DNA of 64,000 nt from a virus (Duplodnaviria; Caudoviricetes), in the IMG/VR virus record IMGVR_UViG_3300028275_000007, one strand, 5' to 3'. The first letter of the stretch is position 1, and every line of letters starts with the position of its first letter. The position numbers and the translations under genes were made by a program. Below the pieces are notes generated by a model, which was not told the origin of the DNA, searched no databases, and worked only from the letters and a program-made list of their open reading frames with translations. Shown one piece after another: positions 1 through 51,200 of the stretch.

Positions 1-2485
1 ATCTTCTTGCATTAAAGTAGCCTGTGTCATAACCTGTTGGATCTGGATATACATAGGCATTGGCAGATCCTAATCCGTTAGCAACAATGTCTTTAATTTC
101 AGCAGCGTTTGCAATTACTGAACTAACTGCTGTAGTGCTACCTGTGCTACCTGCAAGTTGTGCGGTAGTAATTTGAGTTTCAGTATTTCCAGTTGTTGGA
201 GTAACAGAAACGTTAGTAATAATTTCGTCTGTAATAGCTTGTAGACGTGTTAATGTTGCAATTGTTTTTGCTTTGTCGTTTGTAGGAATAATCTTTCCAC
301 GAGGACTAATTCTTGCAGAACGTAGTTCGTCACCAACAATGGCTGTATTTGCCGGTACGTGCATTGGAAGAACTTCATAGTACTCACCAGTTTTTACGTT
401 AACTGTATAATTTGGAAGGTCCTCTAACGGCATTCCGGCAGTTGTACCTGCGGTAACTGCATCTGTAATAATTGCTGCTAGGCTTACACAAACATCTTCT
501 GCATCAGTTTCTGCTGTGTAGCTAGTATCGATGATCTGTTTTGTCTTAGAAGAAACACCGTTTAATGTTTGGTAGTTTGCCGCTGGTGCTGTATTTGCTA
601 AAACGCTTTGTAATACAGTAACACCGTAGTTGATTGCAGCAACTAATTGATCGTCTTCGTCTTGAATTGCAGTGATCAATGCTGTTCCTGCTGCGTTGAA
701 GTAAGATTCAGTTGCTTCGCGAGTTTTTACGTTACCAGTATGTGTTAGGTCATAGATAATTGCGTCTACAATTAATCCCATATCACGTTCACATAGTGCA
801 TCGTTATCGTTGGTAAATCCAACCCAAATACCTGTTGGATGTGCAATCTGATATTTCACCCATTCAGCAATTTCACGTTGAATGAATGTTCTATTCATTT
901 TTAATAGATATGCTGCGTTAGGATACTCTGTTCCTGCTTCTACTTGTTCAAGAGCATAGCGAACGCTAGCCCAAGGTTTATCTAAAGTTGTTCCGTATGT
1001 TGGCGCAGGAGAATTTGTACCGCCTGGTGCAACATAGAATACATTTTTAACTTGGCCAAAATATTTCCAAGTTGGAAGTCCTGAATTAACTGTTAATACT
1101 TGTCCTTCATCACCGACTGGCAAACGTGTTGGTCCAGCGCCGGAGTAGTAAACTAAATCACCGATTGATGTTAAAACACTTTCTTCATTACCAGCTGTTA
1201 ATAGATTCCAATATGTGCCGGTGATATCATTATCTGGTCGATCAGATCCTGTAGTAGCGGTGTGCGCTTGAACGCAAATATAGCTGTTTGGTCCGTACTT
1301 AACAGCGTCACCAAGTACGTATACAGAGCCATTTAGCCAGTTTCCAGACCAATTAATACCTTCATTTAATTTTGACCAATATGATCCGTTTGGTGGTTTA
1401 TGATTTGTACCATCTGCTGTAGCAACATAGGTGTAGCCGCCTAGTCTAACAATTTGTCCTACGCGATATGCAGTACCAGCATCCCAGTCACCAATTAACG
1501 TAAATCCGGTTGTGAATAAATCGTAATTTGTTGAATCATTAGATGGTGTGTCTGATGCTACTAAAGAATTCTTAACAATGTAAGTGTTTCCACCGTATTT
1601 TACTATGTCGCCTGGTTGATACTCAGTTGTCGATGCCCATTCACCTTTGAAGGAAACACCTTCGACAAATTGATTCCAGTTTGAGTTATCTGTTACAAAG
1701 TTTGCTGATGTGTGGTCTGTAACACAGATCCATAATCCGCCGCTAGATTTAACTACATCGTTGACTTTGTATCGAACAGCAGATAACCAATCACCTTTAT
1801 ATTCGATGCCTCTGTTAAAATAGTCCCACTTGCCTTGATCGTTTTCTAGTCCTAATGAAACTGTAGCAGCTGATGTGTGGCCTTCATTACAAACGTATGT
1901 TGTTCCGCCATATTTGACAATGTCACCAATTTTATATTTTTCGTTGGTGCTCCAATCGCCCTTCCAGTCGTTGCCTTTGGTAAAGACATCCCATTTTCCT
2001 AAGTCAACTTCTAACCCGTCAGTGGTTGTTGAAGCCGATGTATGTGCTGTATTACATAGGTAAACATATCCGCCGTATTTTACTAGGTCATTAACTTTAT
2101 AAACAGTATTTGTATCCCAAGATCCTGTCCAATCAAAACTTTCCGCAAATAAATCCCAATCACTTTGGTTAGTTTCTAATACAGAGCTTGAAGTATGGCC
2201 GTTGTTACAAATATAAACATATCCGCCGTATTTTACAATATCGTTTTGTTTATAAAGTGTAGTTGCTGTCCAATCACCTTTCCAAGATTGTCCATCGCTA
2301 AATTGGTTCCAACGTGCTGGAATATTTTCTAAATCTGTATAAAAATCTGCATCTGCGGTGTGACCAATAACGCACACGTAGGTCTTACCACCGTAAGCCA
2401 CGATATCATCTTTGTAGTACGAAGTACCGGTTGCCCAGTTGTCTTTCCATACAAATTTAATTCTACCTAGTTTAAATTCAGCCAT
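1..2485 (-). CDS. Large fibre/appendage protein with tandem CBM5/12 (ChtBD3)-like W..Y..GD.V.YGG..Y.C...HT repeats; runs off the left edge of the window
   Basis: Hand translation from ATG at 2485 gives MAEFKLGRIKFVWKDNWATGTSYYKDDIVAYGGKTYVCVIGHT..., and the frame is still open at base 1. GGAG lies upstream, and the N-terminus parallels the 1822-aa neighbour (MADFKISRFKYTWRGVW). Absent from the supplied ORF track because it is truncated. Confidence 0.85.
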   Translation of the reverse strand, partial: MAEFKLGRIKFVWKDNWATGTSYYKDDIVAYGGKTYVCVIGHTADADFYTDLENIPARWNQFSDGQSWKGDWTATTLYKQNDIVKYGGYVYICNNGHTSSSVLETNQSDWDLFAESFDWTGSWDTNTVYKVNDLVKYGGYVYLCNTAHTSASTTTDGLEVDLGKWDVFTKGNDWKGDWSTNEKYKIGDIVKYGGTTYVCNEGHTSAATVSLGLENDQGKWDYFNRGIEYKGDWLSAVRYKVNDVVKSSGGLWICVTDHTSANFVTDNSNWNQFVEGVSFKGEWASTTEYQPGDIVKYGGNTYIVKNSLVASDTPSNDSTNYDLFTTGFTLIGDWDAGTAYRVGQIVRLGGYTYVATADGTNHKPPNGSYWSKLNEGINWSGNWLNGSVYVLGDAVKYGPNSYICVQAHTATTGSDRPDNDITGTYWNLLTAGNEESVLTSIGDLVYYSGAGPTRLPVGDEGQVLTVNSGLPTWKYFGQVKNVFYVAPGGTNSPAPTYGTTLDKPWASVRYALEQVEAGTEYPNAAYLLKMNRTFIQREIAEWVKYQIAHPTGIWVGFTNDNDALCERDMGLIVDAIIYDLTHTGNVKTREATESYFNAAGTALITAIQDEDDQLVAAINYGVTVLQSVLANTAPAANYQTLNGVSSKTKQIIDTSYTAETDAEDVCVSLAAIITDAVTAGTTAGMPLEDLPNYTVNVKTGEYYEVLPMHVPANTAIVGDELRSARISPRGKIIPTNDKAKTIATLTRLQAITDEIITNVSVTPTTGNTETQITTAQLAGSTGSTTAVSSVIANAAEIKDIVANGLGSANAYVYPDPTGYDTGYFNARR

Positions 2486-2511
2486 TTATAGCTCCATATT
2501 ATTCTTAATCA

Positions 2512-2519
2512 TATTTATC
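2512..2519 (-). promoter_or_regulatory. T4-type late promoter (GATAAATA)
   Basis: ATAAATA on the minus strand ~27 nt upstream of the ATG at 2485, in a short intergenic gap. Confidence 0.65.
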
Positions 2520-2532
2520 TAAAAAAATTATC

Positions 2533-5500
2533 TCACGATTTTGTAAAATAATTCAATGCAAGTAACGTACCGTCTACTCCTCCGGTAAAGTTTACCTGGC
2601 TACCAAATATTAACTCATCTCCGCTGGTTGTAGATATTAGGTCTGGACCAATAGTTACAACACCTGCAGTCAACGATCCAGTGGTAGCATCTGAACCACC
2701 TCCTGAAACTCTTGCAGTCAAGTATGCTTTAATTGCTCTCTGTGTAGGAACAATGTTATTACTGTCAGCGATAAAAGTTCTGTCTGTTGAGAATTCTCTA
2801 ATAACTGTTCCAGAACCGCCTACAGAAACTCCACCTATTCTAATTTCTTCTAGACCTTCTAACTGGAAGAATTGTGCGTTTAATGTTACAGTACCTGTAG
2901 ATTGTTCAACAGCAAATAATTCTCCGCAACGGAAATTACCTTCTTCGTCAGTTGATGTATAGAATACACGACCTCCGTTGGCTTCATATACCTGGTTTTC
3001 AGGAGATATTACTGACCCGTTTGGATTTAGTGTATCTGGATAATTTGTTTGATAGTAGTTTCCTAGACCAATTTCTAAGAAATCGTGACCTGTTATGCGG
3101 CATTGTGAATACAATTGTCTAATTGTTACACCGGTACCGTGTTCAGGACTTTCTTCTCTACCTAAATCTTTAGCAATTTCTAATTGTGCTGTATAATTTC
3201 CGGTAGATCCTCCTAACACAACAGCTCTCAACAGTTTATATGTGTAGTCGTTAATACCTGAAATATTAACGTTATCGCCCGGGCTTGGAATTCTATCTAA
3301 TCCCTGTACAACTAGATATCCGCCTATTTGATATTCATCTTTGTATCCGTCGCCAGAGACTGATACTCGTGTACTGGTTGTTTCGTATCCTTCACCTGCA
3401 TTTAGAATGGTTGGGTTTCCTAAAACTCCGTTGCCTGTTCTTACCTGTACAAATACATCTGTGTCTGCATTTGGATCAACAATAGTCATAACCGGAGCAG
3501 AAGTATAACCACTACCTGGTTCCCAAATTGTTAATGCAGTCATTCTTCCGGCTACCACATATGCTCGTGCTCTAGCTGTGGCTCCTGTCTGTACAGATCT
3601 AACAATTGTAGAGTTTGCTGTAAGTCCTGCTAATACTAACCACTTTCCTGGTTTTGTATTTGCGCTATAGGTTACAGAACACCACGGAGATGAAGTTCCT
3701 AATGATTGGTAATTCCACAATACACCGTCTCTAGACGTTGCACATACTGTAGTTCCGTTAGCGACTGCAAAGAATATGCCCTGAGCATATGTAATTTCTC
3801 TCCAATCTTGTGCTTGAATAGTTTTTTCTGTCCAGGTAATACCATCCCAACTTATAGAAACTTCAGTTGCACCGGCATATCCTCCAGACAATGCAACAAA
3901 TCTTCCGTTACCGTAGGCTAAAGAATAACTTCCCTGAGTGATTGAACCTAAGGTCCAGGTAATTGCATCAGAACTGTATGCTACTGCTGCTGAAGTAGAA
4001 TCACTTAATGCTGTAGTCACATACTTGCCCTTACCATAGGCTACAGAATTCCAGTCAGCGCCTTCAGGAAGAGTAGATGCTATCCAAACCGATCCGTTTG
4101 TACTATAAGCAGCCTTAGTGCCACCGCTTGCTACAGCTACCCATTTTCCGTTACCGTAGGTAACATCACGCCATTCAGCAGTCGAAGGCATAGTCATTGA
4201 TGACCAATTAATTCCATCAGTTGACGAAGCTGCGCTGCCGTTTGAAGCAAATGCCATAAAAATACCATTTACATAACGAACTCGAGTCCACAATGCTGAG
4301 GAAGGTAATGTTGTAGTATCCCAGGTCACACCATTATCTGTGGTATATGCTACAGAATTTGTATCCAACGCTACAGTCACAGCAATTTCATCGCTGGCTG
4401 CAATGCTAGACCATTGTCTATTGGCTGGTAAAGTTTTAGCAGAACTACTAAAACCAGGACTACTCAAAGTTACTCTTGGTTCTATAAAATAATTTGTTGA
4501 CTTATCTAGTGTAGGTTCGATGGCTCGACCTTCATCTAAATGTTCCCATCCTAATTGATGTAAGGTCATTGTGCCTACACCATTTACTAAATTAAATGTT
4601 GCTCCCGGACCTGCTGTGTCACTTATTGTAATCGATGTACTGCTAACAATAGTTTTTACATAATAAACAGTCAATGATTCAATATTTCCGTATGTAGTTC
4701 CAGTAAACATTATAGGATCATTAACAGATAATGCTGAAGTAGATCCTACAGTAACTCTCATTCCAGAGGATGATGTTCCAGTTACTGCAATAGAACTTGT
4801 TGATTCTTTAGCAATGTAAGCATATTTTCCAGTTTCGTCAAAGTCAGCAATATATCCATACTGTCCTGTGCCTGTTCCTCTTCCGATAACTAATCTTAGT
4901 CCTCTGTAGGCTTCAGCAGTTTCAATGTCTGAACCAGCTAACTGTATTGACACAGTATTTCCGCCTTGTGAAGAATTAGTAATAAATTTATATCCAAGGC
5001 CGCCTTCAGCAGACGAGTCTCCTGGATTAGCGATTCGAATTTCTTGTACACCGCCGTTTCTAAATTCATCAACTTCTACAGAAGCATTAATACCTGATCC
5101 AGTAATTGTAAATGTTCCGGCCGTGTATTCTACACCTGCATTACTAAAGAACATTTTTTGAAGACCACCTTCGTCGTTGATTAATGTTTGATAAACGTCT
5201 GCATCATAGTATCTATTGTTAACTGTTGCTGTAATAGGTGTTTCAGCAATATTATATCCTTCTGAAACTGCACCTAATACTCCGTATGAACAGTTGCCGT
5301 TAGCAGCTCGAATTTTTCCACCGTTGGTTGCTAGGTAACCAATATAATTATAATATGTAAACACTGAAATACATTCAGTTCTTCCTGTGCCGTTGGCCCA
5401 TACACCGATACCATCGCTGATAACCTGTGTAAAGTCGTTGGAAACCATAGTTTGATTTCCGCCAGAGTGTAGGTTTCCGTCAATCTTAAATCCAATACAG

Positions 5501-8001
5501 CCAGTACCAAAGGTTGTGCAGTTTTGAATATACGGAGATCTTGTTCCTACCCAGGCCGATTCGTCTGAAGGACCGTATCCAGGATCTAAACTAACAAATG
5601 CACCAGCAGTTGGTCTGCTGGTTCCGTATACGTTAGGAGCACTTAGAGTTCCCTCTAATCCTCTCATGGTCATATTTCTAATACCGGCAGCGTCTCTGCA
5701 ATAGAACATATTGCTGGCTTTATTGGCTGTAAAATCTGAACCGTTAATAAAGAATGTTGAAGCTTCTACTGTTTTATAATTTCCAACATACAAAATGTCG
5801 TATGCAAGAGCATCAATAATTCTTTCAATGTCAAAATCCCATCTATCAGGCAATGGCATTAATAGTGGATTAGTTTCTTGAACATATCCTGCAACCTGGG
5901 CTTTTATAAATTCATAATTGTTTTCAATCTGCGCATTTGCGTTTATATTTCCTGCCGCAGCAGATGGTGTATTTGTACTGCTTATCGATACATTATACTG
6001 CGTTTCAATTCTATTTTTCAACATTTCAATCAATGTTGTTAAAGAAACAATCTGTAAATTTTCTGCTGCTGATGCTGTAAAATCTTGAAATATATCTGTA
6101 TTGTATAAAAGAACATCGGGTTGATCAACAATAGTTTCACCTACTGCTACACCTAATACAATTCTAGAAATTAAAGGTTGTAGATAATCTAATGCTGACA
6201 AGATTAAACTAATATAATCTGAACTAAACGGTGTGTCTGCTGGAAATACTGTCACAGATCTAATGTCATCACCAACTAGTGCTACATAAGGCTGTACTCT
6301 AATTGGTAATATTTCTGGATAGTCGCCTGTTCTAATAAAAATTGTAGAATGAATAGGAACATTTTCTGTAGCGTATCTGATGGATCTCCATGCGCTTTGA
6401 GGACTTGTTCCTCTGTTAGGGCCGTCTATCCCTTCTGGTGAAACAAAGAATACATTCTCTGAATTTAATAGATATTTCCAAGCTACTTCGCTGTTATATG
6501 CTGTAAGTGCTTGACCTTCTTGGTCTACTGGTAATGCTTTATAACCAATTGTACTTCCATCACCAGTGTCGCCAAATGTTCGAACATCGCCTACATTTTT
6601 TAATCTATTAATTCTATTACCGTCGGTAACTTTTTTCCAATATCTTCCTAGCAAAGAACTATCAACTAAGCCATCATCATCGGGTCTATTCCCATTATCA
6701 GAAATGTGTTTATCTAAACAGGTATATGTACTGGATACCCATACAACAGTATCTCCAGCAATATAAGTGGTATCAGGAGCCCATACTCCTCTCCACTTTA
6801 TTCCTGTGGTTAATAAATCCCAGTATACAGAATTAGTTGTGCTGTTGTCGTCTAAAAAGTCTGGGTCTTGATTTGTATTATCTAACAAACAAGAATAAAC
6901 ATTTCCTCCACGTCTAACAACATCTCCTAATAGATATTGAGTTGCCTGGTTCCAATCGCCTCTCATTTTTAAACCAGTATATAATAATTCCCAGTTAAAT
7001 GGTGAGAACGGAGGTTCTTGATTGGTGTGAATTCTTAGAGATTTATATAAATGACCACCATAACTTACAATATCACCTATTTGATATAATGTAGTTTCAT
7101 CCCACTGAAGGTCATACTCGTTACCTGGACAGTATATGTCAAACTGTTCTGACCCAAACACAGATTCCGATGTGTGGAATGTGTTTGCAATATAAAGATA
7201 TGCACCGTATTTTACAACATCATTAACTTTATAAATTGTAGAAGATTGCCAATCACCTTTGTACTCTGTTGACTGATGTAATAAAGTCCACTTTCCTTGA
7301 TCTTTAGGTAATCCTAATGTGTCAGTTTCTGCAGAAACGTGAGGAATTTGACAAATGTAAACATTTCCGCCGTACTTTAAAATATCCCCAAATCTATATC
7401 TGGTATTTGTTGACCAACTATCTCTCCATGACTGAGAAATAACTACCTCTTCCCAAGATGATTGACTTGCTTCTAATCCTTCAACTATTGTTCCTGCTGA
7501 AGTATGAGACAGTACACATCTATAAACTTTTGCCCCATATATTACAATATCATTTATTCTATAATATGTACCAATAGACCAATTAGTTCTCCAGTTCGTA
7601 GACGAAATGTATGTTGTCCATTTTCCAGAATCAATTTCAAAACCAGATTCTAAATTTGCAGTTTCAAGTTCTGGAAATTTTGAGGTATGGGCTTCTGTAC
7701 AAACGTAGGTTACGCCGCCAACGGAAACAATATCACCAACTTTATAATATACATCATTAGTCCACGCTCCTAGCCAACTTGTGCCGTCTGCTACTAATTC
7801 CCACTTTGGAGATAAAACAGGAGGTATATCGCTGTTATAATAATTTAAATCGTAATAAAAATCTGCGTTTGATGCATGAGATTCAATACAGTTATAAACT
7901 TTGCCGCCAAAACTTACAACATCATCTGGGTTATATTTGCTGTGAGCACTCCATACACCTCTCCAGGTATATTTAAATCTGCTTATTTTAAAATCTGCCA
8001 T
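2533..8001 (-). CDS. 1822-aa virion fibre/appendage protein: N-terminal CBM5/12-like repeats, central beta-helix-like region, C-terminal W..(V/I).YG.G.(F/W)VA beta-propeller-type repeats
   Basis: About 9 repeats such as WTNDVYYKVGDIVSVGGVTYVCTEAHTS. Later repeats include WRDVTYGNGKWVAVA, WNSVAYGKGKYVT and YSLAYGNGRFVAL. Paralogous to the 1..2485 ORF. Confidence 0.7.
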   Translation of the reverse strand: MADFKISRFKYTWRGVWSAHSKYNPDDVVSFGGKVYNCIESHASNADFYYDLNYYNSDIPPVLSPKWELVADGTSWLGAWTNDVYYKVGDIVSVGGVTYVCTEAHTSKFPELETANLESGFEIDSGKWTTYISSTNWRTNWSIGTYYRINDIVIYGAKVYRCVLSHTSAGTIVEGLEASQSSWEEVVISQSWRDSWSTNTRYRFGDILKYGGNVYICQIPHVSAETDTLGLPKDQGKWTLLHQSTEYKGDWQSSTIYKVNDVVKYGAYLYIANTFHTSESVFGSEQFDIYCPGNEYDLQWDETTLYQIGDIVSYGGHLYKSLRIHTNQEPPFSPFNWELLYTGLKMRGDWNQATQYLLGDVVRRGGNVYSCLLDNTNQDPDFLDDNSTTNSVYWDLLTTGIKWRGVWAPDTTYIAGDTVVWVSSTYTCLDKHISDNGNRPDDDGLVDSSLLGRYWKKVTDGNRINRLKNVGDVRTFGDTGDGSTIGYKALPVDQEGQALTAYNSEVAWKYLLNSENVFFVSPEGIDGPNRGTSPQSAWRSIRYATENVPIHSTIFIRTGDYPEILPIRVQPYVALVGDDIRSVTVFPADTPFSSDYISLILSALDYLQPLISRIVLGVAVGETIVDQPDVLLYNTDIFQDFTASAAENLQIVSLTTLIEMLKNRIETQYNVSISSTNTPSAAAGNINANAQIENNYEFIKAQVAGYVQETNPLLMPLPDRWDFDIERIIDALAYDILYVGNYKTVEASTFFINGSDFTANKASNMFYCRDAAGIRNMTMRGLEGTLSAPNVYGTSRPTAGAFVSLDPGYGPSDESAWVGTRSPYIQNCTTFGTGCIGFKIDGNLHSGGNQTMVSNDFTQVISDGIGVWANGTGRTECISVFTYYNYIGYLATNGGKIRAANGNCSYGVLGAVSEGYNIAETPITATVNNRYYDADVYQTLINDEGGLQKMFFSNAGVEYTAGTFTITGSGINASVEVDEFRNGGVQEIRIANPGDSSAEGGLGYKFITNSSQGGNTVSIQLAGSDIETAEAYRGLRLVIGRGTGTGQYGYIADFDETGKYAYIAKESTSSIAVTGTSSSGMRVTVGSTSALSVNDPIMFTGTTYGNIESLTVYYVKTIVSSTSITISDTAGPGATFNLVNGVGTMTLHQLGWEHLDEGRAIEPTLDKSTNYFIEPRVTLSSPGFSSSAKTLPANRQWSSIAASDEIAVTVALDTNSVAYTTDNGVTWDTTTLPSSALWTRVRYVNGIFMAFASNGSAASSTDGINWSSMTMPSTAEWRDVTYGNGKWVAVASGGTKAAYSTNGSVWIASTLPEGADWNSVAYGKGKYVTTALSDSTSAAVAYSSDAITWTLGSITQGSYSLAYGNGRFVALSGGYAGATEVSISWDGITWTEKTIQAQDWREITYAQGIFFAVANGTTVCATSRDGVLWNYQSLGTSSPWCSVTYSANTKPGKWLVLAGLTANSTIVRSVQTGATARARAYVVAGRMTALTIWEPGSGYTSAPVMTIVDPNADTDVFVQVRTGNGVLGNPTILNAGEGYETTSTRVSVSGDGYKDEYQIGGYLVVQGLDRIPSPGDNVNISGINDYTYKLLRAVVLGGSTGNYTAQLEIAKDLGREESPEHGTGVTIRQLYSQCRITGHDFLEIGLGNYYQTNYPDTLNPNGSVISPENQVYEANGGRVFYTSTDEEGNFRCGELFAVEQSTGTVTLNAQFFQLEGLEEIRIGGVSVGGSGTVIREFSTDRTFIADSNNIVPTQRAIKAYLTARVSGGGSDATTGSLTAGVVTIGPDLISTTSGDELIFGSQVNFTGGVDGTLLALNYFTKS

Positions 8002-8712: not shown

Positions 8713-9765
8713 TTATCCTAGAGTTAATGCAAATGCAACAGAAATATCATTAGCCTGTGTTTCTGACACAGCTCCAGATGCACCTGCAGGACTAGCCCAA
8801 GAAACTCCGTCCCAAATTTCCAAAGCCTTTGAATTAGTATTATATCGTGTCATTCCGACAACCGCATAAGATGTTGGACGCTGCGCATCATTTCCTCTTG
8901 GCGGAACAAACCCATTGGTACCAACAATTTTAAGATAACCATTACCTGTATGGGTAATTGTTGTAACAGCACCGGATACTACGTTAGTAATAGAACTATC
9001 AATAATTTTAATATTACCAGTTCGTATACCTCCCGCAGCATTTCCTTCTAATCGCAAATCTGTACCAGTTGTGGTAGTAATTATGTTATCTTGAAAAATA
9101 ACACTTCCTACTTCAAAATAAGGAAGGTTCATTGAAGTAGTATATAAATCTTTAGTGTAAACAGCTCTCCATCTTACTGAACTAGAACCAATATCATATG
9201 TAGCATCAGTTTGAGGAATAATATCACTAGTAACGCTGGCATTAAAAACAATGTTATCGGTTAGTGCGTCACCAATTTGAATGTTGCCGCCGATCACTAC
9301 ATTTCCAGAAGTATTAATATTTCCAGAAACATCAAGATTTCCTGTAATATTTGTACTTGCTGAAATATTAACTGTGCCGGTACCGTTTGGTGCTAGATCA
9401 ATTGAACTGTTAGAAACAGTAGTAGAAATAGTATTTCCTTGTAATTGAAGATCATCAATTTGAAGTCTGCTGTGATAAACAGTTGCTTCGCCGGCAGCGG
9501 CTTGAAATACTATTGTGCTGGTATCGCTGGTAATTGTATTGCCAGTAAAGTGTAAATTACCGACATTAATTTGTGTGTCAACAGTATGATTTATACCGTG
9601 TATATTACCGTTGACATCTAGGTCTGTAGTGGGGGCTGCTGTACGTATCCCGATACGAGAGTTAACAACATCCAAATAGAGAAGATCAGTCTCAAAAGCT
9701 AAATCCACACCATCTCTGATGAGATTTGACTTTAAGAGCTGACCGGAAATACGACCAATAGCCAT
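8713..9765 (-). CDS. Fibre-like structural protein (350 aa)
   Basis: N-terminal GRISGQLLKSNLIRDGVDLAFETDLLYLDV, Thr/Gly/Asn-rich beta repeats, C-terminal PRGNDAQRP...GMTRYNT...LEIWDG module. AGGAG RBS upstream. Confidence 0.7.
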   Translation of the reverse strand: MAIGRISGQLLKSNLIRDGVDLAFETDLLYLDVVNSRIGIRTAAPTTDLDVNGNIHGINHTVDTQINVGNLHFTGNTITSDTSTIVFQAAAGEATVYHSRLQIDDLQLQGNTISTTVSNSSIDLAPNGTGTVNISASTNITGNLDVSGNINTSGNVVIGGNIQIGDALTDNIVFNASVTSDIIPQTDATYDIGSSSVRWRAVYTKDLYTTSMNLPYFEVGSVIFQDNIITTTTGTDLRLEGNAAGGIRTGNIKIIDSSITNVVSGAVTTITHTGNGYLKIVGTNGFVPPRGNDAQRPTSYAVVGMTRYNTNSKALEIWDGVSWASPAGASGAVSETQANDISVAFALTLG

Positions 9766-9896
9766 TAGCTCTCCTTAACAGACCCCGTGTTTCACGGTTA
9801 ACCTAATTTGGACTAACGTCCGCAGCCTTATGGCTCTTTGCTGGTTTACCACAGTCGGATCTTGCAAAAGTTTTGGTCTACCTTTGCAATTAGTAG
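9766..9896 (-). ncRNA. Candidate structured 5' leader (cis-regulatory RNA) between a perfect late promoter and the 350-aa gene
   Basis: 131 nt non-coding, ~45% GC, with hairpins at 9862-9889, 9842-9851, 9824-9835, 9810-9821 and 9785-9797 plus a closing helix 9857-9862/9780-9785. Confidence 0.55.
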
Positions 9897-9904
9897 TATT
9901 TATA
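9897..9904 (-). promoter_or_regulatory. T4-type late promoter, perfect TATAAATA
   Basis: The plus strand reads tatttata at 9897-9904, just after the stop of 9917..11050. Confidence 0.8.
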
Positions 9905-9916
9905 CCAAATGGAGAA

Positions 9917-11050
9917 TTAGCCGAGGACTAGGGTCCAAATGTTTCCAATATCGTACATAAGTTCTTGTGTAACTTCGATACCACCACCTGTTGCCACTGA
10001 CCATACAGTACCATCAAAACATTCCAGGTACCCTCTTTCTGTGTTGTATCTAGTTTCACCTACTTCTGGACTTAAAGGACGTTCGCTATCGGATCCGTTA
10101 GGAACAACCATACCGTTTGTACCGGTAAACTGAATGTATCCTATTCCTGTAGACTGTAATAATAAAGGATTGTTTTCTGGATTTATTATAGCATTTTCGT
10201 TAAATGCAATTTTTTCTAAGTATGTGTCTGCTGAATCGGCGGTTATTATTAAATCTTCATTGGACTGTGTTGTTGTAATTGTAGTTGTAACACCGTTAAT
10301 TTCTACTTGATCACTGATATAAGCATAAGACGTATGGATACCTAATCCTGAATTTCCTATCGAAGTCCAATCAGATTGATAAACTTTATCCCAACGCTTT
10401 GTAGGTTTCCCTAGATCATAAACTTCATTGTTACCTAAGACAATTGTTTGAGTAAAATCGGTATTAATACTAGCAGTATCAGTAGTTTGGTCACCGATAG
10501 TTAGAGTACCAATTCCTGTTAAATCTCCCTGTAACGTTATGTTCCCTGTTACAGTTAAATTTCCTGTAATGTTTGTGTCTGCAATAAAATTAACTTTGCC
10601 TGTTCCGTTAGGATCAAATACAATATTTGAATTGCTAATACTGCTAATTTGATTATCGTTGAATATTAAACTGCTGGTAGTTAATCTATCGTGAAAAATA
10701 TCACTTCCGGCTATCATAACCTGTATGCCGCCAACTGAAGTTGTAAATGTATTTCCGTTATTAATTTTAAGATTTCCAGCAATTAACTGTGTATCAACAG
10801 TTAAATTATGGCTATGAATATCTCCGTCTACATCTAAGTCGTAGGCAGGCGGAGATTTTTTTATACTAACTCGTTTATTTGTAACGTCAAGGTATAATAA
10901 ATCAGTTTCAACAGCGATGTCAATGCCGTTTCTTTGTAGGTTAGCGGTTAATAATTTTCCACTAATTCGGCCAAGCTGAGACGAATAATTAGGTTCACTA
11001 CCGTAGGTGTTTGAACCTAATAGACCGTCATCATCGCCCAATATACCCAT
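9917..11050 (-). CDS. Fibre-like structural protein (377 aa), paralog of 8713..9765
   Basis: GRISGKLLTANLQRNGIDIAVETDLLYLDV and C-terminal PNGSDSERP...GETRYNT...LECFDG match the neighbouring gene. Confidence 0.7.
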   Translation of the reverse strand: MGILGDDDGLLGSNTYGSEPNYSSQLGRISGKLLTANLQRNGIDIAVETDLLYLDVTNKRVSIKKSPPAYDLDVDGDIHSHNLTVDTQLIAGNLKINNGNTFTTSVGGIQVMIAGSDIFHDRLTTSSLIFNDNQISSISNSNIVFDPNGTGKVNFIADTNITGNLTVTGNITLQGDLTGIGTLTIGDQTTDTASINTDFTQTIVLGNNEVYDLGKPTKRWDKVYQSDWTSIGNSGLGIHTSYAYISDQVEINGVTTTITTTQSNEDLIITADSADTYLEKIAFNENAIINPENNPLLLQSTGIGYIQFTGTNGMVVPNGSDSERPLSPEVGETRYNTERGYLECFDGTVWSVATGGGIEVTQELMYDIGNIWTLVLG

Positions 11051-14404: not shown

Positions 14405-14435
14405 TTGTTTTCTCCTTGTGTTGACGTTCTAGGCC

Positions 14436-14455
14436 TACGCGGTGGGTGCCGCATA
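14436..14455 (-). promoter_or_regulatory. GC-rich leader hairpin UAUGCGG-CACCCA-CCGCGUA in a ~65-nt 5' UTR
   Basis: 7-bp stem with one G-U pair, between the late promoter (14472-14479) and the RBS of the 127-aa gene. Confidence 0.5.
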
Positions 14456-14471
14456 AATCACTTAGATACTT

Positions 14472-14479
14472 TATTTATC
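14472..14479 (-). promoter_or_regulatory. Late promoter (GATAAATA)
   Basis: Lies just downstream of the capsid-gene terminator. Confidence 0.65.
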
Positions 14480-14488
14480 CAGCCAAAC

Positions 14489-14512
14489 AAAAAGCCCCTT
14501 TCGGGGCTTTTT
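14489..14512 (-). terminator. Rho-independent terminator after the major capsid gene (possibly bidirectional)
   Basis: The minus strand reads AAAAAGCCCC-GAAA-GGGGCTTTTTGTTT, a perfect stem with GAAA loop and U-tract. Confidence 0.9.
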
Positions 14513-14539
14513 GAATACGTTGTATAATCTTTTTAAAGA

Positions 14540-15715
14540 TTAAGCAAAACGTAGGTTTGCAGATGTAACATCAACAAGAGCCAAGTAGTCAGCAGCATTA
14601 CCTAGAGATGATGCTGTGTTTGTTAACTCAACATAACCGTATCTGGTCATGAAAGAAACTACTGGTTCAAATGTAGATGGATCTAATACAACACCGCTGC
14701 TCATCAATGGAATGTATGGGCAGTAGAATGCTGCTGCGTCAGACTCGGAAGTACCTTTGTAACCAATCAATACTTTGTCGTCTTCTGCGTATGTGTTTAC
14801 ATACACTTTCATTGCGCTGTTCAATGTACCAACGAACTTGGTGTTTGTTGGAGCTTCGAAAGTGCCTTCTGTAGTGCGAGCAAAAGCAGAAGTTGTAGCA
14901 GACTGTAATAGTGTTAATACAGTTGGTGATACAACAGCCCAGTTACCTGCGCCACGACGTGTACGTTGTGCGATCAAGTTAGAAGCACGGTTGATTTGAA
15001 CAGCTAGAGCAGCGTGTTCGTCACCAACGAATGTAGCTGTACCAGAAACTGCTGCTTGGTCGTATGTTAATACGGCTGTACCAGCTAGTGTCTTCAAGCT
15101 ACGTAGAACTTCTTGATCAATCTCAGCTGTGATCTCTTGTGCAAGAGCAGCCATGATTTCTGCTTCGATGTCAATACCTTGTTGGGCTTGTGCATCTTGA
15201 GCAGCTTCAAATGTCCAGCGAGCAGACAACTTACGTGTCTTAGCTTCGACTGTTTGTTTCAAGATTTGAATGCTTAGTCTGTTACCTGCTACGCCTTCTA
15301 AAGCTGCTGTAGAAGCTGCCTTATCAGAACCAGATACACCAGAATAGCCTTCAGCAATCTTGAATGGGCTTAGTGCCTCATCGCCAGCTGTAGTGTTACC
15401 ACCAGCAGAACCACTGAATGTGTCGCTGTAGCGAACACGTAGAGTATGGATCTGACCAACTGGGCCTGTCATTGGTTGTACACCAACTAGTTCATTAGCA
15501 ATGACTGTTGGCATTACACGTCTGATCACAGGTAGGATCACACGATTTAGGGTTGCAACGTTACCGGCGGAAGTAGCACCAGCTGTAGCACTCTCTGCCA
15601 AATACTTGCGGGTATTCTCTAGAGTAGTTGCCATAACTGTACGCTTGTTACCTTGTAGGCCTTCTAATAGAGCCTCTTTAGTTTCCGACCAGCGTGACTC
15701 GAGTAGTTGTGACAT
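14540..15715 (-). CDS. gp23: Major capsid protein, T4 gp23 family
   Basis: LPVIRRVMPTVIANELVGVQPMTGPVGQIHTLRVRY, TVEAKTRKLSARWTFEAAQD, LAQEITAEIDQE, YCPYIPL and FMTRYG are hallmark gp23 motifs. Confidence 0.97.
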   Translation of the reverse strand: MSQLLESRWSETKEALLEGLQGNKRTVMATTLENTRKYLAESATAGATSAGNVATLNRVILPVIRRVMPTVIANELVGVQPMTGPVGQIHTLRVRYSDTFSGSAGGNTTAGDEALSPFKIAEGYSGVSGSDKAASTAALEGVAGNRLSIQILKQTVEAKTRKLSARWTFEAAQDAQAQQGIDIEAEIMAALAQEITAEIDQEVLRSLKTLAGTAVLTYDQAAVSGTATFVGDEHAALAVQINRASNLIAQRTRRGAGNWAVVSPTVLTLLQSATTSAFARTTEGTFEAPTNTKFVGTLNSAMKVYVNTYAEDDKVLIGYKGTSESDAAAFYCPYIPLMSSGVVLDPSTFEPVVSFMTRYGYVELTNTASSLGNAADYLALVDVTSANLRFA

Positions 15716-42213: not shown

Positions 42214-45200
42214 ATGGCAGATAAATTTTATCCTAAGAGCAACTTACCAATTAGAAGAACAGTTGAGCTATTGCCTTCTGTTTTTCAAACATCTAGTAAC
42301 GATAAGTTTTTATCAGGAGTATTAGATCCTTTAGTCCAGCCTGGCGTATTAGATAAGGTTGTTGGATATGTAGGAAGAAGATACGAAAAAACTTACACTG
42401 GCACTGATGTATATGTAGATACAGACAATACTTTAAGAAGCAGATACCAATTAGAACCCGGTGTTGTTTATAAAAATCTTAATAAAATTGAAAATTTTTA
42501 TGACTACCTTGACTTTAAAAATCAGTTAAAGTTTTTTGGAAACATTGATGAGCGTGACGACAAGATAACAGAACAAGAACATTATACTTGGAATCCTCCT
42601 GTTGATTGGGATAAGTTTATTAATTACAGAGAATACTACTGGCAACCAAGCGGTCCGCCAAGTTTACCTATATACGGCCAAACCGCCAAGGTAACAAGTA
42701 CATATAAAGTTGTTTTAGGAACAACAGGAAACTCTTTTGTATTCACTCCTGATTCTTATACAAACAATCCTACAATTACTTTGTACAGGGGACAAACATA
42801 TAAGTTTAAAGTTAATGCTCCGGGAGAAGGATTTTCTATTAGAACAAACTATGATACCGGTTCATTAATTTTCCAACCTTATCACTCTTATAAAGCAGGA
42901 AGCCTTGCAGTTTATGATGGAAACCTATGGAAAGCTAAAAGAGATATTTCGCCAAGTGACGGCAGCTCTATTAGTATAGATAGTCAAGACTGGGAGTTTG
43001 TCGACCTAGCATCGTCGACTACTGCGTTAGAATATTCTAACGGTGTAACAAATAACGGAACTCAGAATGGTACTTTAACATTTGAAGTGCCCTACGATGC
43101 TCCGGACACTTTATATTATCAAGGATTAATAACTCCAGATCGCTTTGGAAAATTTTTAATTGCCGACATAGAATCAAATTCTTTCATTAATATTAATAAA
43201 GATATTATTGGAAAATCTCAATACACTTCTAGCAACGGAATAGAATTATCAAGTGGAATGATTGTCGAATTTAGAGGAAACGTAACTCCTGCTGAGTACT
43301 CTCATAATAATTGGTTAGTCGAAGGAGTAGGCGATGCTATTACACTAACAAGATTCGATAGTCTGGTCGTTCCTGTATTGACAACAGATGTACCGGAAGT
43401 TTTATTTGACAATGAAGGATTTGATACGCAACCGTTTGACGATGCGACCGCATATCCAACATATAAAGATTATACAACAATTCGAAGAGATAGTAGAGAT
43501 TTAAATCCCTGGAGTCGATATAACAGATGGTTTCATAGATCTGTTTTAGAAAAATCATATTCCTTAAGAGGAGAAGATTTTCCAGCAACTGAATCTTTAA
43601 GAGCAAAAAGACCTATTATCGAATTTAAACCAAATCTACAGTTATATAACTTTGGTTCTGTAGCTAAACAAACAGTTGATTATTTAGATACAAATACTAC
43701 TGATATTTTTAGTATCATAGAAGGTAGTTCTGGTTACAACATTGACGGTGAGTTTTTATTTGAAGGCGCAAGAGTTTTATTTGTTGCTGATACTGATAGT
43801 CTTGCAAATAATAAAATTTATGAAGTACAATTTATAACACATAATAATCTACGCCAAATACATTTAAAAGAAGCCTTAGATAGCGAATCTGCTGTTGGTA
43901 GTTGTTTATTAATTAGACGCGGCAATAAAAATTCTGGCAAGATGTTCCATTTCACAGGAACAGCTTGGAAAGAAAGCCAGCAAAAAATTACAGTTAATCA
44001 AAGTCCAATGTTTGACGGGTTTGACAACAACGGAATAAGTTTTTCTAATGAAGATACATATCCGACTAATACGTTTGTTGGTACTGAAATTTTAAGTTAT
44101 AAAGTTGGCTCTAGTGTTGTTGATAAAGAATTAGGATTTAGTATAAGTTATCTCAACATCAATAATATCGGAGACATACAATTTAATTGGTCTTGGGATT
44201 CTGCTAAATTTGAATATGTGATCGATAGAGTTACATATTCTAAAGATCTAGCCACCGGCTTCTATAAATTTAACAACATCAACGGAGATGATTATCAAAA
44301 CGGTTGGTTGCTAGCAGATACAAAATATTTTCAACCTATCATTGACAGTCAAATTGTAAAAGAATCTACAAACATTTTAACTTTTAATACTGTAAGATGG
44401 GAAAATCTCAAAGAAGATAACGAAATTAATTTTTATGTTAACGGTACAAAGTATCTTGGAGACTGGACACGAACTCTAGGAACTTTTACATTCTCAACAA
44501 CATTTGAAATAAATGATGCAGTTTCTTTGAAATTAATTTCAGACATTGAACCAGACCAAGGATATTACGAAATTCCTGTAGGTCTTGAAAAGAATCCATT
44601 TAACGATAATTTAATAACATTTACTCTTGGCCAAGCAATTGATCATTTAACAACTGCATTAGAGTTTAATATTGATATTACTGGCATAGTTCCAGGAAAT
44701 TCTAATTTGCGTGATATATCTAATTTCCAAAAATTTGGAAAACGATTTTTAAAACATTCTGGTTTAACTCCAGTAGTGTTGATGTCGCTATGCGATAAAA
44801 CTCATAATATTGTTAAATCAATACAGTATTCTAAGCAGTCATATACAGAATTTAAAAATAATTTCTTATCAAGAGCATTAGAAATAGATTACAATGATAA
44901 TATTCCAGATTTTGTCGATGAGATTATAAACAGTTTAACAAAAACTAAAAATTCAACAAATCAATTTTCAGAGTCCGATATGATTGGTAGCGGAGCATTC
45001 ACTTCAATAGTATATGAAGTTGATGATCCAGGAATAAAAACATTTTCTCTTAGCACGAAATTTGATTTATCTACTCCTAGCAGTAGAGCCGTTTACGTTT
45101 ATTTTAACGGAAACCAATTATTAAATTCTCAAGATTACACATTTAATTCTACTTTTGGTTTTGTACAGTTATCAGTTAATTTAACCGAAGGTGATGTAAT

Positions 45201-48200
45201 TGAAATTAGAGAATATGTTTCTACATCTTCGAACTATATTCCAGCAACTCCAACGTCAATGGGATTGTATAAAAAATATACTCCAATGAAATTTGTTGAT
45301 GATACCTATGTAGAACCAAGAGAAGTTATTCAAGGTCACGACGGTAGCATTTCAGCAACATATGGCGATTTTAGAGATGATCTATTATTAGAATTAGAAT
45401 ATAGAATTTATAATAATATCAAACAAGAATACAATGAAGACATTTTTAATATAGACGATATTGTTGGCGGTTACTACGGTGTCGGATTATATAAAAAATC
45501 TCAATTGGACATTATAGTGTCTCAAGAATTTTTAAAATGGATTCAAAATACAAATATTAATTATACATTAAATTCTTATTTTGACAGTCAAAATTCTTTT
45601 ACATATACCTACACAAATATGACAGATCCTACAAGGTCTGAAAATTTACCAGGGTATTGGAGAGGTGTGTATCAATATTTCTACGATACTGATCGACCAC
45701 ATCGTTGTCCTTGGGAAATGTTGGGCTTTAGTGAAAAACCAACTTGGTGGGAAAGTGAATACGGCCCTGCACCTTATACTAGAGGAAATTTAATTCTTTG
45801 GGAAGATTTAGCAAACGGAATTATACGTCAAGGTACAAGAAAGGGCAGATACGCTCGATATACAAGGGATACATTACTATCTCATATTCCTGTAGACGAC
45901 GAAGGTCGTTTATTGAGCCCATTAGATTCTGGATTAGCTAGAGATTTTTCATTAATTAACAATCAAGGATCGTTCGTATTAGGCGATATAGCTCCTGTCG
46001 AATACGCATGGAGATCAAGTTCTGAATGGCCATTTGCTGTTGTAATAGCAATGGCATTAATGAGACCGTTTGAATTTATTTCGAATAATTTTAACAAAGA
46101 CGGAGTATCTTTAAACAACCTAGGACAAACAATTTATTCGTCTACTGGCAAATTTATTACAAAAGAAAATTATGGTCAATCAACTGACAATATAGTTGGT
46201 CTTGGAAAATATATTATCGATTATGTAAAATCAAAAGGTATCGATGAAACTACCTTATGGGATAAGATTAATAATATTGATGTACAAATATCGCATAGAA
46301 TGTCTGGATTTGTTGACCAGCAACAACAAAAATTTTTATTAGACTCTAAGAGTCCAGCAGCATCGTCATCTAGCGTATATGTTCCTCCAGAGAACTACGA
46401 TATTATTTTTAATGTAAGTTCTCCTATTGCTAGCTTGTCTTACAGCGGAGTAATTATAGAAAAAAATTCAAGCGGGTGGGTGTTAAAAGGCTATGACGAT
46501 ATACAACCATATTTTAATTATTTCCAAGCACTTCCAAACCAACGAGATCCTATTATATCTGTTGGCGGCACAAGTGAGAATTTCTTAGACTGGCAAGCTA
46601 ATAAATTATACTCTAATGGAATATTAGTGAGATATGCCAACGAATTTTATAGAGCACTTAAATCTCACACCAGCGGAGATGTATTTGACATTGATCTATG
46701 GAAAAAAGTAGCAGGAATTCCAAAAACTGGAGCAGTAGAAGCAAGCGGTAGAAGAACATTTAACACACTGGTAGTTAAACGTCTAAGTTACGGAACACAA
46801 TTTACAACTATTCAACAGGTTGTTGATTTCCTATTGGGGTACGAAGCCTATCTCAAATCAGTAGGATTTATATTTGATAATTACGATCCTGAAAATAAAG
46901 TATCGCAAGACTGGCTATCTGCTGCAAAAGAATTTATGTTCTGGACCAAGCACAGCTGGCAAGTCGGATCGTTGATCTCACTAAGCCCTGCAGCACAAAA
47001 AGTTAACATAACAGTTCCTGTTGGCGTTGCTGATAGCGTATTAGAAGGATTTTACAATTATCAAGTTCTTAAAGGTGACGGTAAACCTCTGCAACCAAAA
47101 TATATTGATGTTAGCAGAAATTTTCAAAATATCACAGTTACTACCACAAATACCACTGACGGTATTTACTATCTAAAGTTATTTTATGTTCTGAAAGAAC
47201 ACGTAACTATTTTTGACGATAAAACAGTTTTTAACGATACTATCTATGACAAGACAACCGGTTACCGTCAAGGAAGAATAAAAGTACACGGATATAGAAC
47301 AACCGATTGGGACGGAGATTATACCAGCCCAGGATTCTTATTTGATAATGTTAATATACAACCTTGGGTACCATATACTGATTACAAGTTAGGCGATATT
47401 GTTTCTTATAAATCTTACAATTGGACTAGCTTGATTAATCAGCCGGGCTCTCAAACATTTAATGATGCCTATTGGAGCAAGTTAGATACAACTCCAGAAA
47501 AACAGTTAGTTCCTAACTTCGATTACAAAATTAAAGGGTTCTCTGATTATTTTGAAGTAACGTCAGACGGCCTAGACAAGAGTCACAGAGATTTAGCTCG
47601 TCATACAATAGGATATCAAACTAGAAATTATCTACAGAATCTTTCAGAAGATCCAGTTACACAATTTCAAATATATCAAGGATTTGTTCGTGAAAAAGGA
47701 ACAGCAAATTCGATTACAAAAATATTTGGAAAATTAAGTCGTTCAGAAACTGATAGTATTTCTCTCAACGAAGAATGGGCATTTTTAGTAGGAAAAGTCG
47801 GAGGCGTTGATCAGCTTACTGAAGTTGAAATACAAATTGAAAAAAATAAATTAGAAGTTAACCCTCAACAATTTTTAATAGAAACTACTAAGTCTGCTTT
47901 AACTACAGATCAAAAGTATAGAATAACTTCTTCTGATTTTACAATAGTACCAACCCCATTTAATGTTAATATATCACCCACTGCTGATTTATCTTGCCCT
48001 TATACCGCAGGATATATTACTTCGACTACTATTGATCATTCTATTAAGACAAGAGAAGATTTATTAACTTTAGATATAAATTCTATAAAAGAAAATGATC
48101 ACATTTGGGTTACGTTTGAAAAAGATTCTTGGACAGTATTAAGAGTTAACGAATCTGCCACTCTTGAAATAACTGACGTCACTCGTCCATCGGATACAAC

Positions 48201-51200
48201 AGTTGTTATTACATTTAATCGTCCGCACTCTATTCAAATCGACGAGTATGTGGGCTTTAGAAACATATTAAATTTAGTAGGCTTTTATAAAGTTTCTAAT
48301 AAAACTACTGCAACAATCACTGTTAATGTATCGTCAACGATTCAAGATCCTGTAATTGATTACAGTACAATTACACGAGTTCAGTTAATAACTGAATGCA
48401 GATTTGCTGATTATCAATCTATAGACAACCAACAAGCAGCGTTATTAAAAAATAAATCTAGATTATTTGTTGATTCTAATGATACAGGAAATTGGGAAGT
48501 TGTTGAAAAAAATAAACAGTATTCTCCTAAAACAATTTCTGACTACGGTGTAACTAATCCGCTATTTGCCGGATCGTCAGTTCTGTACGACAATATTAAT
48601 AAACAAATAATTTCAAGTATTCCAGGATCGGGAATAGTTGTAGTTTATGTTGAAACTGATACCGGCCTACAAATAAAACAAATATTGTCTCCTCCAGTTA
48701 ACACATATAGTAATGCAGTTGGATCGTTTGGTAAATCAATGGCGTTGTCACCGGACGGAAGATTTTTAATTATTGGAACGCCTGAAGCCAGCGGATTAAA
48801 AACAAATTACCAAGGACCTTGGGAGTCTCAGGTAAGATATCAAACAAACGATATTGTGCTTTATTCCGGACAAATCTGGAGAGCCAAGAATCCTAACTAT
48901 CTAGGTACTGACGGAAGTACAGTAGCAGCAGTTAACACTGATGATTGGGAAATTGCAACTAATATTCCAGTACTAACATCAGGAAGAGTTTCTGGTTTTT
49001 ACAATCAAGGAATGATTGCAATATATGAATTTTCAAATGGAAGATACACAAATGCAAAAGCATTTGTAAGTCCTCGACCTGTTGAAAATGAAAAATTTGG
49101 ATCTAATGTAACTGTAAGTTATGACGGTACAAATTATTATATGGCAGTTAGTGCTGTAGGATCAGTAAACAGTTCCGGAAGAGTTTATTTGTTTAAAAAC
49201 ACAGGAACCGACTGGGAACATTTAGAAAATTCTCACTATAAAGGAATTTATAATCCTTCAACAATTTATCGTGAAGGCGATATTGTATGGCAACCTGCAC
49301 AAGATCCAATTGTAGAAGAAGTCAAGGGCAACCTATGGCAGGCACTTGAAACACAACAAGGTGACGGCAGCACATTAACACTAGAATCATCTGGTTGGAT
49401 AAAAGTTAGTGATGTTTCTACAAGCTGCTCTTTACCAACAAATGTGTCTATAGAAGACGACGGCTCAACAGTTGCAGCTGGAATAATTTCAGTGGATCAA
49501 CTTACAGAAATTATAAAACAAGATGAACAATTTGGTTATAGTTTAACAATGAGCCGAGACGGAAGTATATTAGTTGTTGGCGCTCCGTATGCCGACGGTC
49601 AATATTTTTCTAACTACAAAGGATTGTGGAGAGCCGATGTAGAATATGCAGAAGGAGAAGTTGTCAAATATTCAGATATCTATTATCGATTAGGAGATGC
49701 GTCAGGAAACCCAGATTCTACTTACAGAAGTCAAGGAGAAGATCCGTCGTCCAGTGCCAATTGGCAAGAAGTAGGCGATAGTGCTGCTAATCCTTCAGGA
49801 AAAGTTTTTGTATACAAGAAAACTAGTTATGATTTATATCAGTTAATCCAGACACTAACATCTGCAAACATATCATCTTATTCAGATGTGAGCATGGAAA
49901 TAAATGTTGGAGATCAATTTGGATATTCTGTAGATGTTGACTCATCCGGTACTACATTGATTATTTCTAGCCCACGATCAGACATAAATTATCAAAATCA
50001 AGGATCAGTATATGTTCTTAATTTTGATTCCAATATTTCTGAATTTAAAGTAAAACAAAAATTAGAAAGTTATGAAATGTATCCAAGTGAATACTTTGGA
50101 TACGGCGTTTCTATTAGCCCGGACGGATATAAAATAGCCATCGGTTCTAAAAACACTTATTCGCATTATCCTATAATATTTGATTCAATGAGCGGAACAC
50201 TCTTTGATCAAGGAAGAACTAGTTTCTATGTTGACCAAGGATACACCGGCGGCGTTTATATATTTGATAAAAAAGACAACGAATTTTTCTTAACAGAAAA
50301 ATTAGAATCTGTACTTGTTGAAAATGAAAGTTTTGGTTATAGTATTGATTGTGTTGGATCAAAAGTATTAGTAGGGTCTCCTTATTATAGAAAAGATAAT
50401 ACAGGAGATTACATTGGTAATATAAGATTATTCAGCAAAGATTCTTCTGTTGATTCTTGGACTATTATATCTCAACAATCTCCTTTAGTTGACATAAGAA
50501 AAATTAATAGTGTTGAGTTATACGACAATATTAAAAATGTTAAAATACAGGATATAGATTTTATAGATCCTGCTAAAGGTAAAATCCTTAATTTAGCAGA
50601 AGAAGAAATTAAATTTAAAACACCATACGACCCTGCGGTCTATACTGTAGGAACTGAAGACGTAGTAGTTGATAGTTCTATTAACTGGCTAGAAAAAAAT
50701 GTTGGACAGCTATGGTGGAATGTAGGTAATGCAAAATGGATGTATTCTGAAATTGGAGACATTTCCTACAGACAAGGTAATTGGACACAACTAGTAACTG
50801 GCGCAAGTATTGATGTTTACGAATGGGTGGAAACTCCGTTGTTGCCTAGCGAGTGGGCTGCTTTAGCTGATACAAACGAAGGCCTAGCAGTTGGAATTTC
50901 CGGCCAGCCATTATATCCTAATGATGATACCTATAGCACAAAACAATTTTATAATTCTATCAGTGGTCAAGTGAACAAGACTCTTTATTATTACTGGGTA
51001 AAGAATAAATCTACAGTTCCTTCTAATTTAAATTTTAGAAGAAAATCTTGCTCTGAAGTAGCTAGTTTGATATCAAACCCAGTAGGAACTGGACTACCGT
51101 TTATAGCATTTGTTGATTCTGATAAATTTATAACCTATAATTTTGATTCTATTATTCAATCAGATACTGCATTGCTTAATATAAAATATAAGAACGAATT

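Follow-up and report, generated by a model that had tools for sequence, protein, structure and literature searches.

A conserved pseudoknotted leader RNA before a fibre-like gene of T4-like jumbo phages, a candidate cis-acting translational operator

The fibre-like locus and its late-promoter box

The DNA analyzed here, referred to as the window, is a whole stretch of 64,000 nucleotides from a Caudoviricetes virus (IMG/VR record IMGVR_UViG_3300028275_000007). It encodes a portal protein and a T4-type major capsid protein (14540-15715; Pfam Gp23), the latter being 67-72% identical to the capsid proteins of the jumbo phages Phosso, Vibrio 2.275.O, and PA5oct. Because the capsid protein is of the T4 type and close to those of jumbo phages, the source of the window is, as judged from its sequence, an uncultivated T4-like jumbo phage. 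The structural region also contains a single ORF of 4618 aa at 42214-56070 (+). A gap of 135 nt (14405-14539, -) follows the major capsid gene, and a TAAATA box is located there 67 nt ahead of the next ORF.

The leader considered in this study lies between two ORFs of the same strand, 9917-11050 and 8713-9765 (-), and its features are listed in Table 1. The two ORFs form a tandem fibre-like pair (8713-11050, -), in which a structured leader is found only at the second gene and the first is preceded by a gap of 10 nt. Both paralogues have a GRISG..LL..NL N-domain, beta-helix-like repeats, and a common C-terminal end. Atlas neighbours of the fibre-like protein were viral throughout, some of them with trimer, S74-chaperone, or Mtd_N domains, and the ORFs next downstream carry 6-8 CBM_5_12 modules apiece. 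An AlphaFold model of the fibre protein had a pLDDT of 44 and was unusable, and cultured phages searched with the fibre locus gave no DNA match and one partial protein match. From the domains and neighbours we infer that "fibre gene" is a reasonable label for 8713-9765. Two very large ORFs of 1822 and more than 828 aa, which are rich in CBM_5_12 and located downstream in the same orientation (2-8001, -), are probably adhesin or fibre components.

An earlier note on this DNA, made from the sequence alone, had described a perfect late-promoter box followed by 131 non-coding nucleotides, and both were confirmed: TATAAATA is present upstream of the leader, and a non-coding gap (9766-9896, -) extends from the box to the ATG at 9765. 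No conserved small ORF was found in the leader, since stop codons and frame vary among the relatives. The perfect TATAAATA has only two copies in the window. It is the shorter (N)TAAATA, and not the full T4 octamer, that recurs, and the DNA outside the listed ORFs, 2.6% of the total, contains 14 of its 32 sites. In the sense orientation, TAAATA was found upstream of 15 ORFs in the window, and the longest leader behind such a box is the 131-nt fibre leader. Its exceptional length, which had been pointed out in the note, is therefore real; the other leaders, for most of which the note gave 20-40 nt, are mostly 18-67 nt long. The box has the properties of a T4-type late promoter, namely a TATAAATA-like -10 box that recurs before late genes with no -35 box. 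When the spacing rule of T4 late promoters is applied, the transcript would start near 9891, and the terminal hairpin P1 would therefore be placed 1-2 nt from the mRNA 5' end. The P1 stem begins 7 nt past the promoter box in 73 of 135 sequences, and its position near the 5' end would correspond to the geometry of a stabiliser hairpin. In PA5oct, ATAAATAC precedes the tail-sheath gene (L316:1570-1580); only sigma-70-like promoters are given in the PA5oct paper.

Table 1. Features of the fibre leader and its flanking genes, in window coordinates
Feature	Position	Strand	Remarks
Upstream paralogous fibre-like ORF, 377 aa	9917-11050	-	GRISG N-domain after a 25-aa extension; without structured leader
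T4-type late-promoter-like box TATAAATA	9897-9904	-	Family consensus NTAAATA; kept in all relatives
P1, 5'-terminal hairpin UUGCAAAGG/CUUUUGCAA	9862-9889	-	9 bp and 10-nt loop; compensatory changes at every pair
Conserved P1 loop motif GACCAA	9873-9878	-	
J1/2, single-stranded octamer ACUGUGGU	9848-9855	-	Invariant in alignments A1 and A3
P2, long-range helix	9800-9846	-	9841-9846 with 9800-9806, A9804 bulged; encloses a conserved A-rich internal loop, P3, and P3a
P3, hairpin AGCC-AUAA-GGCU	9824-9835	-	Conserved
P3a, hairpin GGAC-GUUA-GUCC	9810-9821	-	Optional insert; conserved
P4, hairpin of type A, CCGUG-AAA-CACGG	9785-9797	-	5 bp, loop AAA; conserved
Shine-Dalgarno AAGGAG	9771-9776	-	Unpaired in the consensus fold
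Fibre-like ORF, 350 aa	8713-9765	-	ATG 9763-9765; 45-aa N-terminus very conserved
UUGGUC, codons 3-5 (+8 to +13)	9753-9758	-	Predicted partner of the P1 loop in a long-range pseudoknot

Conservation and distribution of the leader

The relatives of the fibre protein comprised 72 viral loci, and the leader core was present in 48 of them when counted with a regular expression. The core is conserved base for base even where the proteins are only 40-50% identical. For a wider search, a 20-nt degenerate pattern of the core was used for a pattern scan, and at least 119 viral loci were found among the matches listed. We also constructed a covariance model (R1) from the MAFFT alignment A1 of 36 distinct leaders and RNAalifold, with P3 and P4 added by hand. 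Nearly all of these loci were confirmed by the model at E < 1e-6 with a single copy each, and the window also has one copy. More than 140 distinct sequences of viral or metagenomic origin have this leader ahead of the orthologous gene, with one copy per genome; five large records, one of which is a 100%-complete genome of 357.6 kb, have exactly one copy each. Every instance found is located directly 5' of an ORF that starts with the same approximately 45 residues, the remainder of the protein being 350 to more than 1000 aa long.

The core pattern matched 120 times in 596 Gb of bacterial and archaeal genomes; only two of these matches were real, and both were on contigs of metagenome-assembled genomes (MAGs). 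The motif and the fibre gene are present on L227 (PBPT01000016.1, 335 kb; Neomarinimicrobiota MAG) and L277 (JAWOBB010000060.1; Dehalococcoidia MAG). These contigs are probably mis-binned jumbo-phage DNA, or possibly a hint of the host. In four cultured relatives (Phosso, Vibrio 2.275.O, PA5oct, and Yersinia fHe-Yen9-03), the covariance-model search did not find the motif. A 24-bit match in PA5oct was rejected, as it consists of the promoter box and the Shine-Dalgarno sequence ahead of the tail-sheath gene.

A cmscan of window positions 9000-10800 against Rfam 15 with permissive filters found nothing in the leader at E <= 10, and ten relatives gave no match at the motif at E <= 1. No description of the motif was found in the literature.

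Fibre homologues with other leaders were also observed in viral contigs (L333, L341, L359, L388, and others; L320, L362, L363, L400, and L408). One of these leaders, of approximately 85 nt, has ACUGU and a hairpin with a CAAUGUAA loop and lacks P1; another has a variant core and a P1 loop other than GACC. Homologues with such alternative leaders have GGC as Gly4, the scan that retrieved them having excluded GGU. The alternative leaders may be distant relatives of the motif.

Covarying helices and the loop-codon pairing

The leader alone folds with -34.7 kcal/mol (z -1.69), and 11 of 200 shuffled sequences fold as well; a folding energy better than that of shuffled sequence, on which the earlier note had made its proposal depend, was thus narrowly missed. 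Because the energy of the single sequence is not significant, the case rests on comparative evidence. RNAalifold on A1 recovered P1 and the core of the long-range helix P2. In 100 distinct sequences, the covariation score was 0.46 compared with 0.156 in shuffles, and 83% of the cells were paired compared with 27-41% when the 3' partners were slid. P2 covaries perfectly, with 91% of its cells paired; at one of its pairs, CG was found 57 times, AU 40, GC 19, and GU 14, and no unpaired case was found. Since G-U pairs are frequent, the sense-strand RNA is the selected molecule.

Heavy covariation of P1-P4 was found in the homologous upstream regions, and of the six helices proposed in the note, four (P1, P3, P3a, and P4) proved to be real and conserved across relatives. 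The other two were not upheld. The bases needed for its UGG-UAAA-CCA hairpin are part of the invariant octamer and of the perfectly covarying P2 (5' strand), and its closing helix AGAUCC/GGGUCU showed a complementarity across relatives of 3.70 bp, compared with 3.62 +/- 0.07 for permuted pairs.

The domain downstream of P1 is modular. In "short" relatives, P3 is swapped for 3 nt. P4 of type A was found in 73 sequences, with an outer stem of CCG/CGG in 64 and CGG/CCG in 9, and P4 of type B, found in 57 sequences, is an unrelated, almost invariant hairpin of 16 nt in the same place. All four combinations of P3 presence or absence with P4 type A or B were found. No covarying partner was found for the invariant octamer ACUGUGGU. 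Pairing of the P1 loop with the 3' strand of P2 or with the octamer was considered and rejected, as no compensating change was present in the GGCU, GGUA, and GUCC variants. The Shine-Dalgarno sequence is never sequestered in the fold, and neither an alternative fold that sequesters it nor an anti-Shine-Dalgarno sequence was found.

The GACC of the P1 loop is complementary to Gly4-Arg5 (GGU-C) of the fibre gene. In an unbiased set of 129 sequences, GACC is present in 104 of the loops and Gly4-Arg5 is GGU-C in 124; Gly4 is GGU in 125, while codons 3 and 5 are free to vary at their third positions. In a slightly different, variant-enriched set, Gly8 is GGU in 112 of 140. Motif-bearing leaders whose gene uses another Gly codon were collected by targeted scans. 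Where Gly4 is GGA, the loop is GUCC in 5/6 sequences, compared with 0/142 of the others (Fisher p = 1e-8, uncorrected), and in further metagenome contigs all 14 distinct sequences agreed with the GUCC/GGA pairing. This combination is now found in approximately 20 distinct sequences of three lineages, with one exception. On a tree constructed with the trait columns masked, loop and codon each change three times and always jointly; because there are only three independent lineages, a phylogeny-aware sign test cannot reach significance. In 98 of 134 sequences, the best predicted duplex begins between +7 and +9, and the mean duplex energy is -6.6 kcal/mol compared with -4.1 kcal/mol for shuffled targets; a 6-bp duplex of -8.5 kcal/mol is predicted for the window. 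At the level of sequence covariation, these data demonstrate a long-range pairing of the P1 loop with +8 to +13.

The corresponding codons differ in genes without this leader. The leaderless paralogue upstream has GGC-CGA for Gly-Arg and not GGU-CGN, and homologous genes with other leaders have GGA, GGC, or GGG as Gly4. There are also sequences that depart from the loop-codon rule: L081 is a direct exception, the GGG variants of Gly have no GCCC loop, and about 10 sequences have short, variable P1 loops. In one sub-lineage (L050, L096, L371, L386, L430, L106, L356, and L375), the P1 loop carries the usual codons in the same sense or the P3 loop carries AACCAAG, and the two complementary segments seem to have shifted into the leader itself, to the loops of P1 and P3.

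Proposed function of the leader and alternative explanations

The leader before the fibre gene is, on the comparative evidence, a real, strongly conserved, folded RNA of an uncatalogued family. Several observations strongly bear out the structured cis element suggested in the earlier note: the leader is conserved more than the protein, its helices covary, its G-U pairs are strand-specific, and it occurs once per genome at a constant place ahead of the same gene. Most likely, the leader controls the amount of fibre protein made, and a tuning of fibre translation fits the pairing of the P1 loop with codons 3-5. Somewhat in favour, we consider that these leaders constitute a pseudoknotted family of uncultivated T4-like jumbo phages that acts as a cis translational operator of the fibre gene.

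For such an operator, the following mechanism is proposed. A transcript made from the TAAATA late box would begin 1-2 nt ahead of P1, and P1, the invariant octamer, the compact P2(P3)-P4 domain, the Shine-Dalgarno sequence, and AUG would follow in this order from 5' to 3'. The P1 loop pairs, as the covariation shows, with +8 to +13, and this pairing would close a pseudoknot that surrounds the entire domain together with the ribosome-binding site. Since the loop-codon helix around the Shine-Dalgarno sequence and AUG would lie within the 30S footprint, initiation would be lowered or gated; the closed form would hinder or trap the 30S subunit, and the fibre protein would be made in smaller amounts than the bulk late proteins. 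A factor, most probably a protein, would dock on the invariant core and stabilise or release the closed form. Such a specific partner is suggested because the octamer and loops are invariant, and the N-domain of the fibre itself, a different protein of phage or host, or a small ligand would be candidates. The terminal hairpin P1 probably also shields the mRNA 5' end. With 6 bp, the helix at +8 to +13 may by itself lack the strength to repress, and the two unrelated forms of P4 are awkward for a single trans factor. As a more tentative extension, a domain that senses a protein or a metabolite might decide whether the 5'-terminal loop clamps codons 3-5, and this would be a new class of phage riboregulator.

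Pseudoknotted leaders that act as translational operators are known as a kind, and what is new is the family, its setting in phage late genes, and the clamp from a 5'-terminal loop to codons. The S4 and S15 operators are the closest known parallel in their logic: their pseudoknots involve the start codon and coding bases, and a conformer stabilised by the protein traps the 30S subunit (PMC3616713). The leaders of the E. coli alpha operon (S4, RF00140) and rpsO (S15, RF00114) share with the fibre leader a 5'-leader pseudoknot including the start codon and coding sequence as well as an unpaired Shine-Dalgarno sequence, and they have no sequence or model similarity to it. These operators belong to ribosomal-protein genes, whereas the gene here is a phage late structural gene and all instances found lie before a fibre-like gene. 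Unlike in S4 and S15, the pairing loop of the fibre leader is in a hairpin at the very 5' end, approximately 100 nt upstream.

The T4 gene 32 leader, an element of autogenous translational control, has a local 5' pseudoknot, and repression occurs by cooperative coating of an unstructured AU-rich tract. Like the fibre leader, it belongs to a T4-type mRNA and is structured at its 5' end; the fibre leader differs in being fully structured and in contacting the coding region directly. Stabiliser hairpins of the ompA type lie within a few nucleotides of the 5' end, as P1 is predicted to do; they need no conserved loop and have no distal partner. In common with leaders bound by CsrA/RsmA, P4 of type B has GGA in the hairpin loop and a second GGA in the Shine-Dalgarno sequence; this feature is limited to type B relatives, and the type A P4 of the window is without GGA. 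A phage-encoded CsrA was considered as the partner of type B P4, and none was found in 15 records.

Several other explanations have been weighed. The leader could act without any trans factor, as a 5'-terminal hairpin that stabilises the mRNA combined with a fixed translational attenuator that sets fibre stoichiometry. P1 at a fixed 7 nt from the box and about 2 nt from the predicted start, the lack of a detectable alternative fold or anti-Shine-Dalgarno sequence, and the short, unstructured state of the other late leaders in the window are consistent with this. However, the octamer and the A-rich loops are invariant and the 16-nt type B hairpin is nearly so; a stabiliser or attenuator needs none of these, and such sequence constraint usually marks a recognition surface, so that we regard this explanation as rather doubtful. 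A riboswitch, in which P2-P3-P4 and the octamer would be an aptamer for a small molecule or ion reporting the host state and binding would set the closure of the P1 loop, is unlikely. Covarying stems with invariant junctions, a feature of riboswitches, are indeed found here, the stems being of variable length and the pseudoknot reaching the initiation region. Against it, the motif accompanies a single structural gene instead of genes for metabolism or transport, P3 may be missing, an unrelated hairpin can take the place of P4, and no mutually exclusive pairing was detected, the closing helix not being conserved and the P1 loop and P2 3' strand being without covariation.

A function at the level of transcription has also been considered, in which a put-like RNA for processive antitermination would ensure full transcription of the long downstream fibre operon. 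The element is located directly behind the promoter, and the same-strand genes that follow it extend over approximately 9.7 kb, are separated by gaps of 0-50 nt, and include the ORFs of 1822 and more than 828 aa, which would suit such a role; since the pairing with codons 3-5 and the strict link to one N-terminal coding sequence are left unexplained, we think this very improbable. Hardly any credence is given to the remaining proposals, that the leader has no function as an RNA and serves as a DNA homology anchor for recombination of fibre modules, or that it is a self-cleaving ribozyme or the source of a processed small RNA. A conserved block composed of the C-terminal end of the upstream gene, the leader, and the 45 N-terminal codons, followed by very variable distal parts, would suit a homology anchor, but the compensatory changes, with G-U pairs on one strand only, demand selection for pairing in the RNA and largely refute the absence of an RNA function. 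No match to any Rfam ribozyme family was obtained, and a small RNA processed from the leader, which had been raised in the note, found no support.

To our knowledge, hardly any structured cis-regulators of late structural genes are known from DNA phages, and jumbo phages are little studied. Nature provides a compensatory pair for the fibre leader, GACC/GGU versus GUCC/GGA, and because this pair is available together with more than 140 sequences and clean covariation, the proposed operator is testable without a cultured host. The leader would be a new RNA family for the catalogue and could be a marker of this uncultivated phage clade. If it is a switch responsive to a factor, it would reveal by what means large phages adjust the amount of their host-recognition proteins, and if the sensor reading is true, jumbo phages would gate their receptor-binding fibre by assembly state or host physiology.
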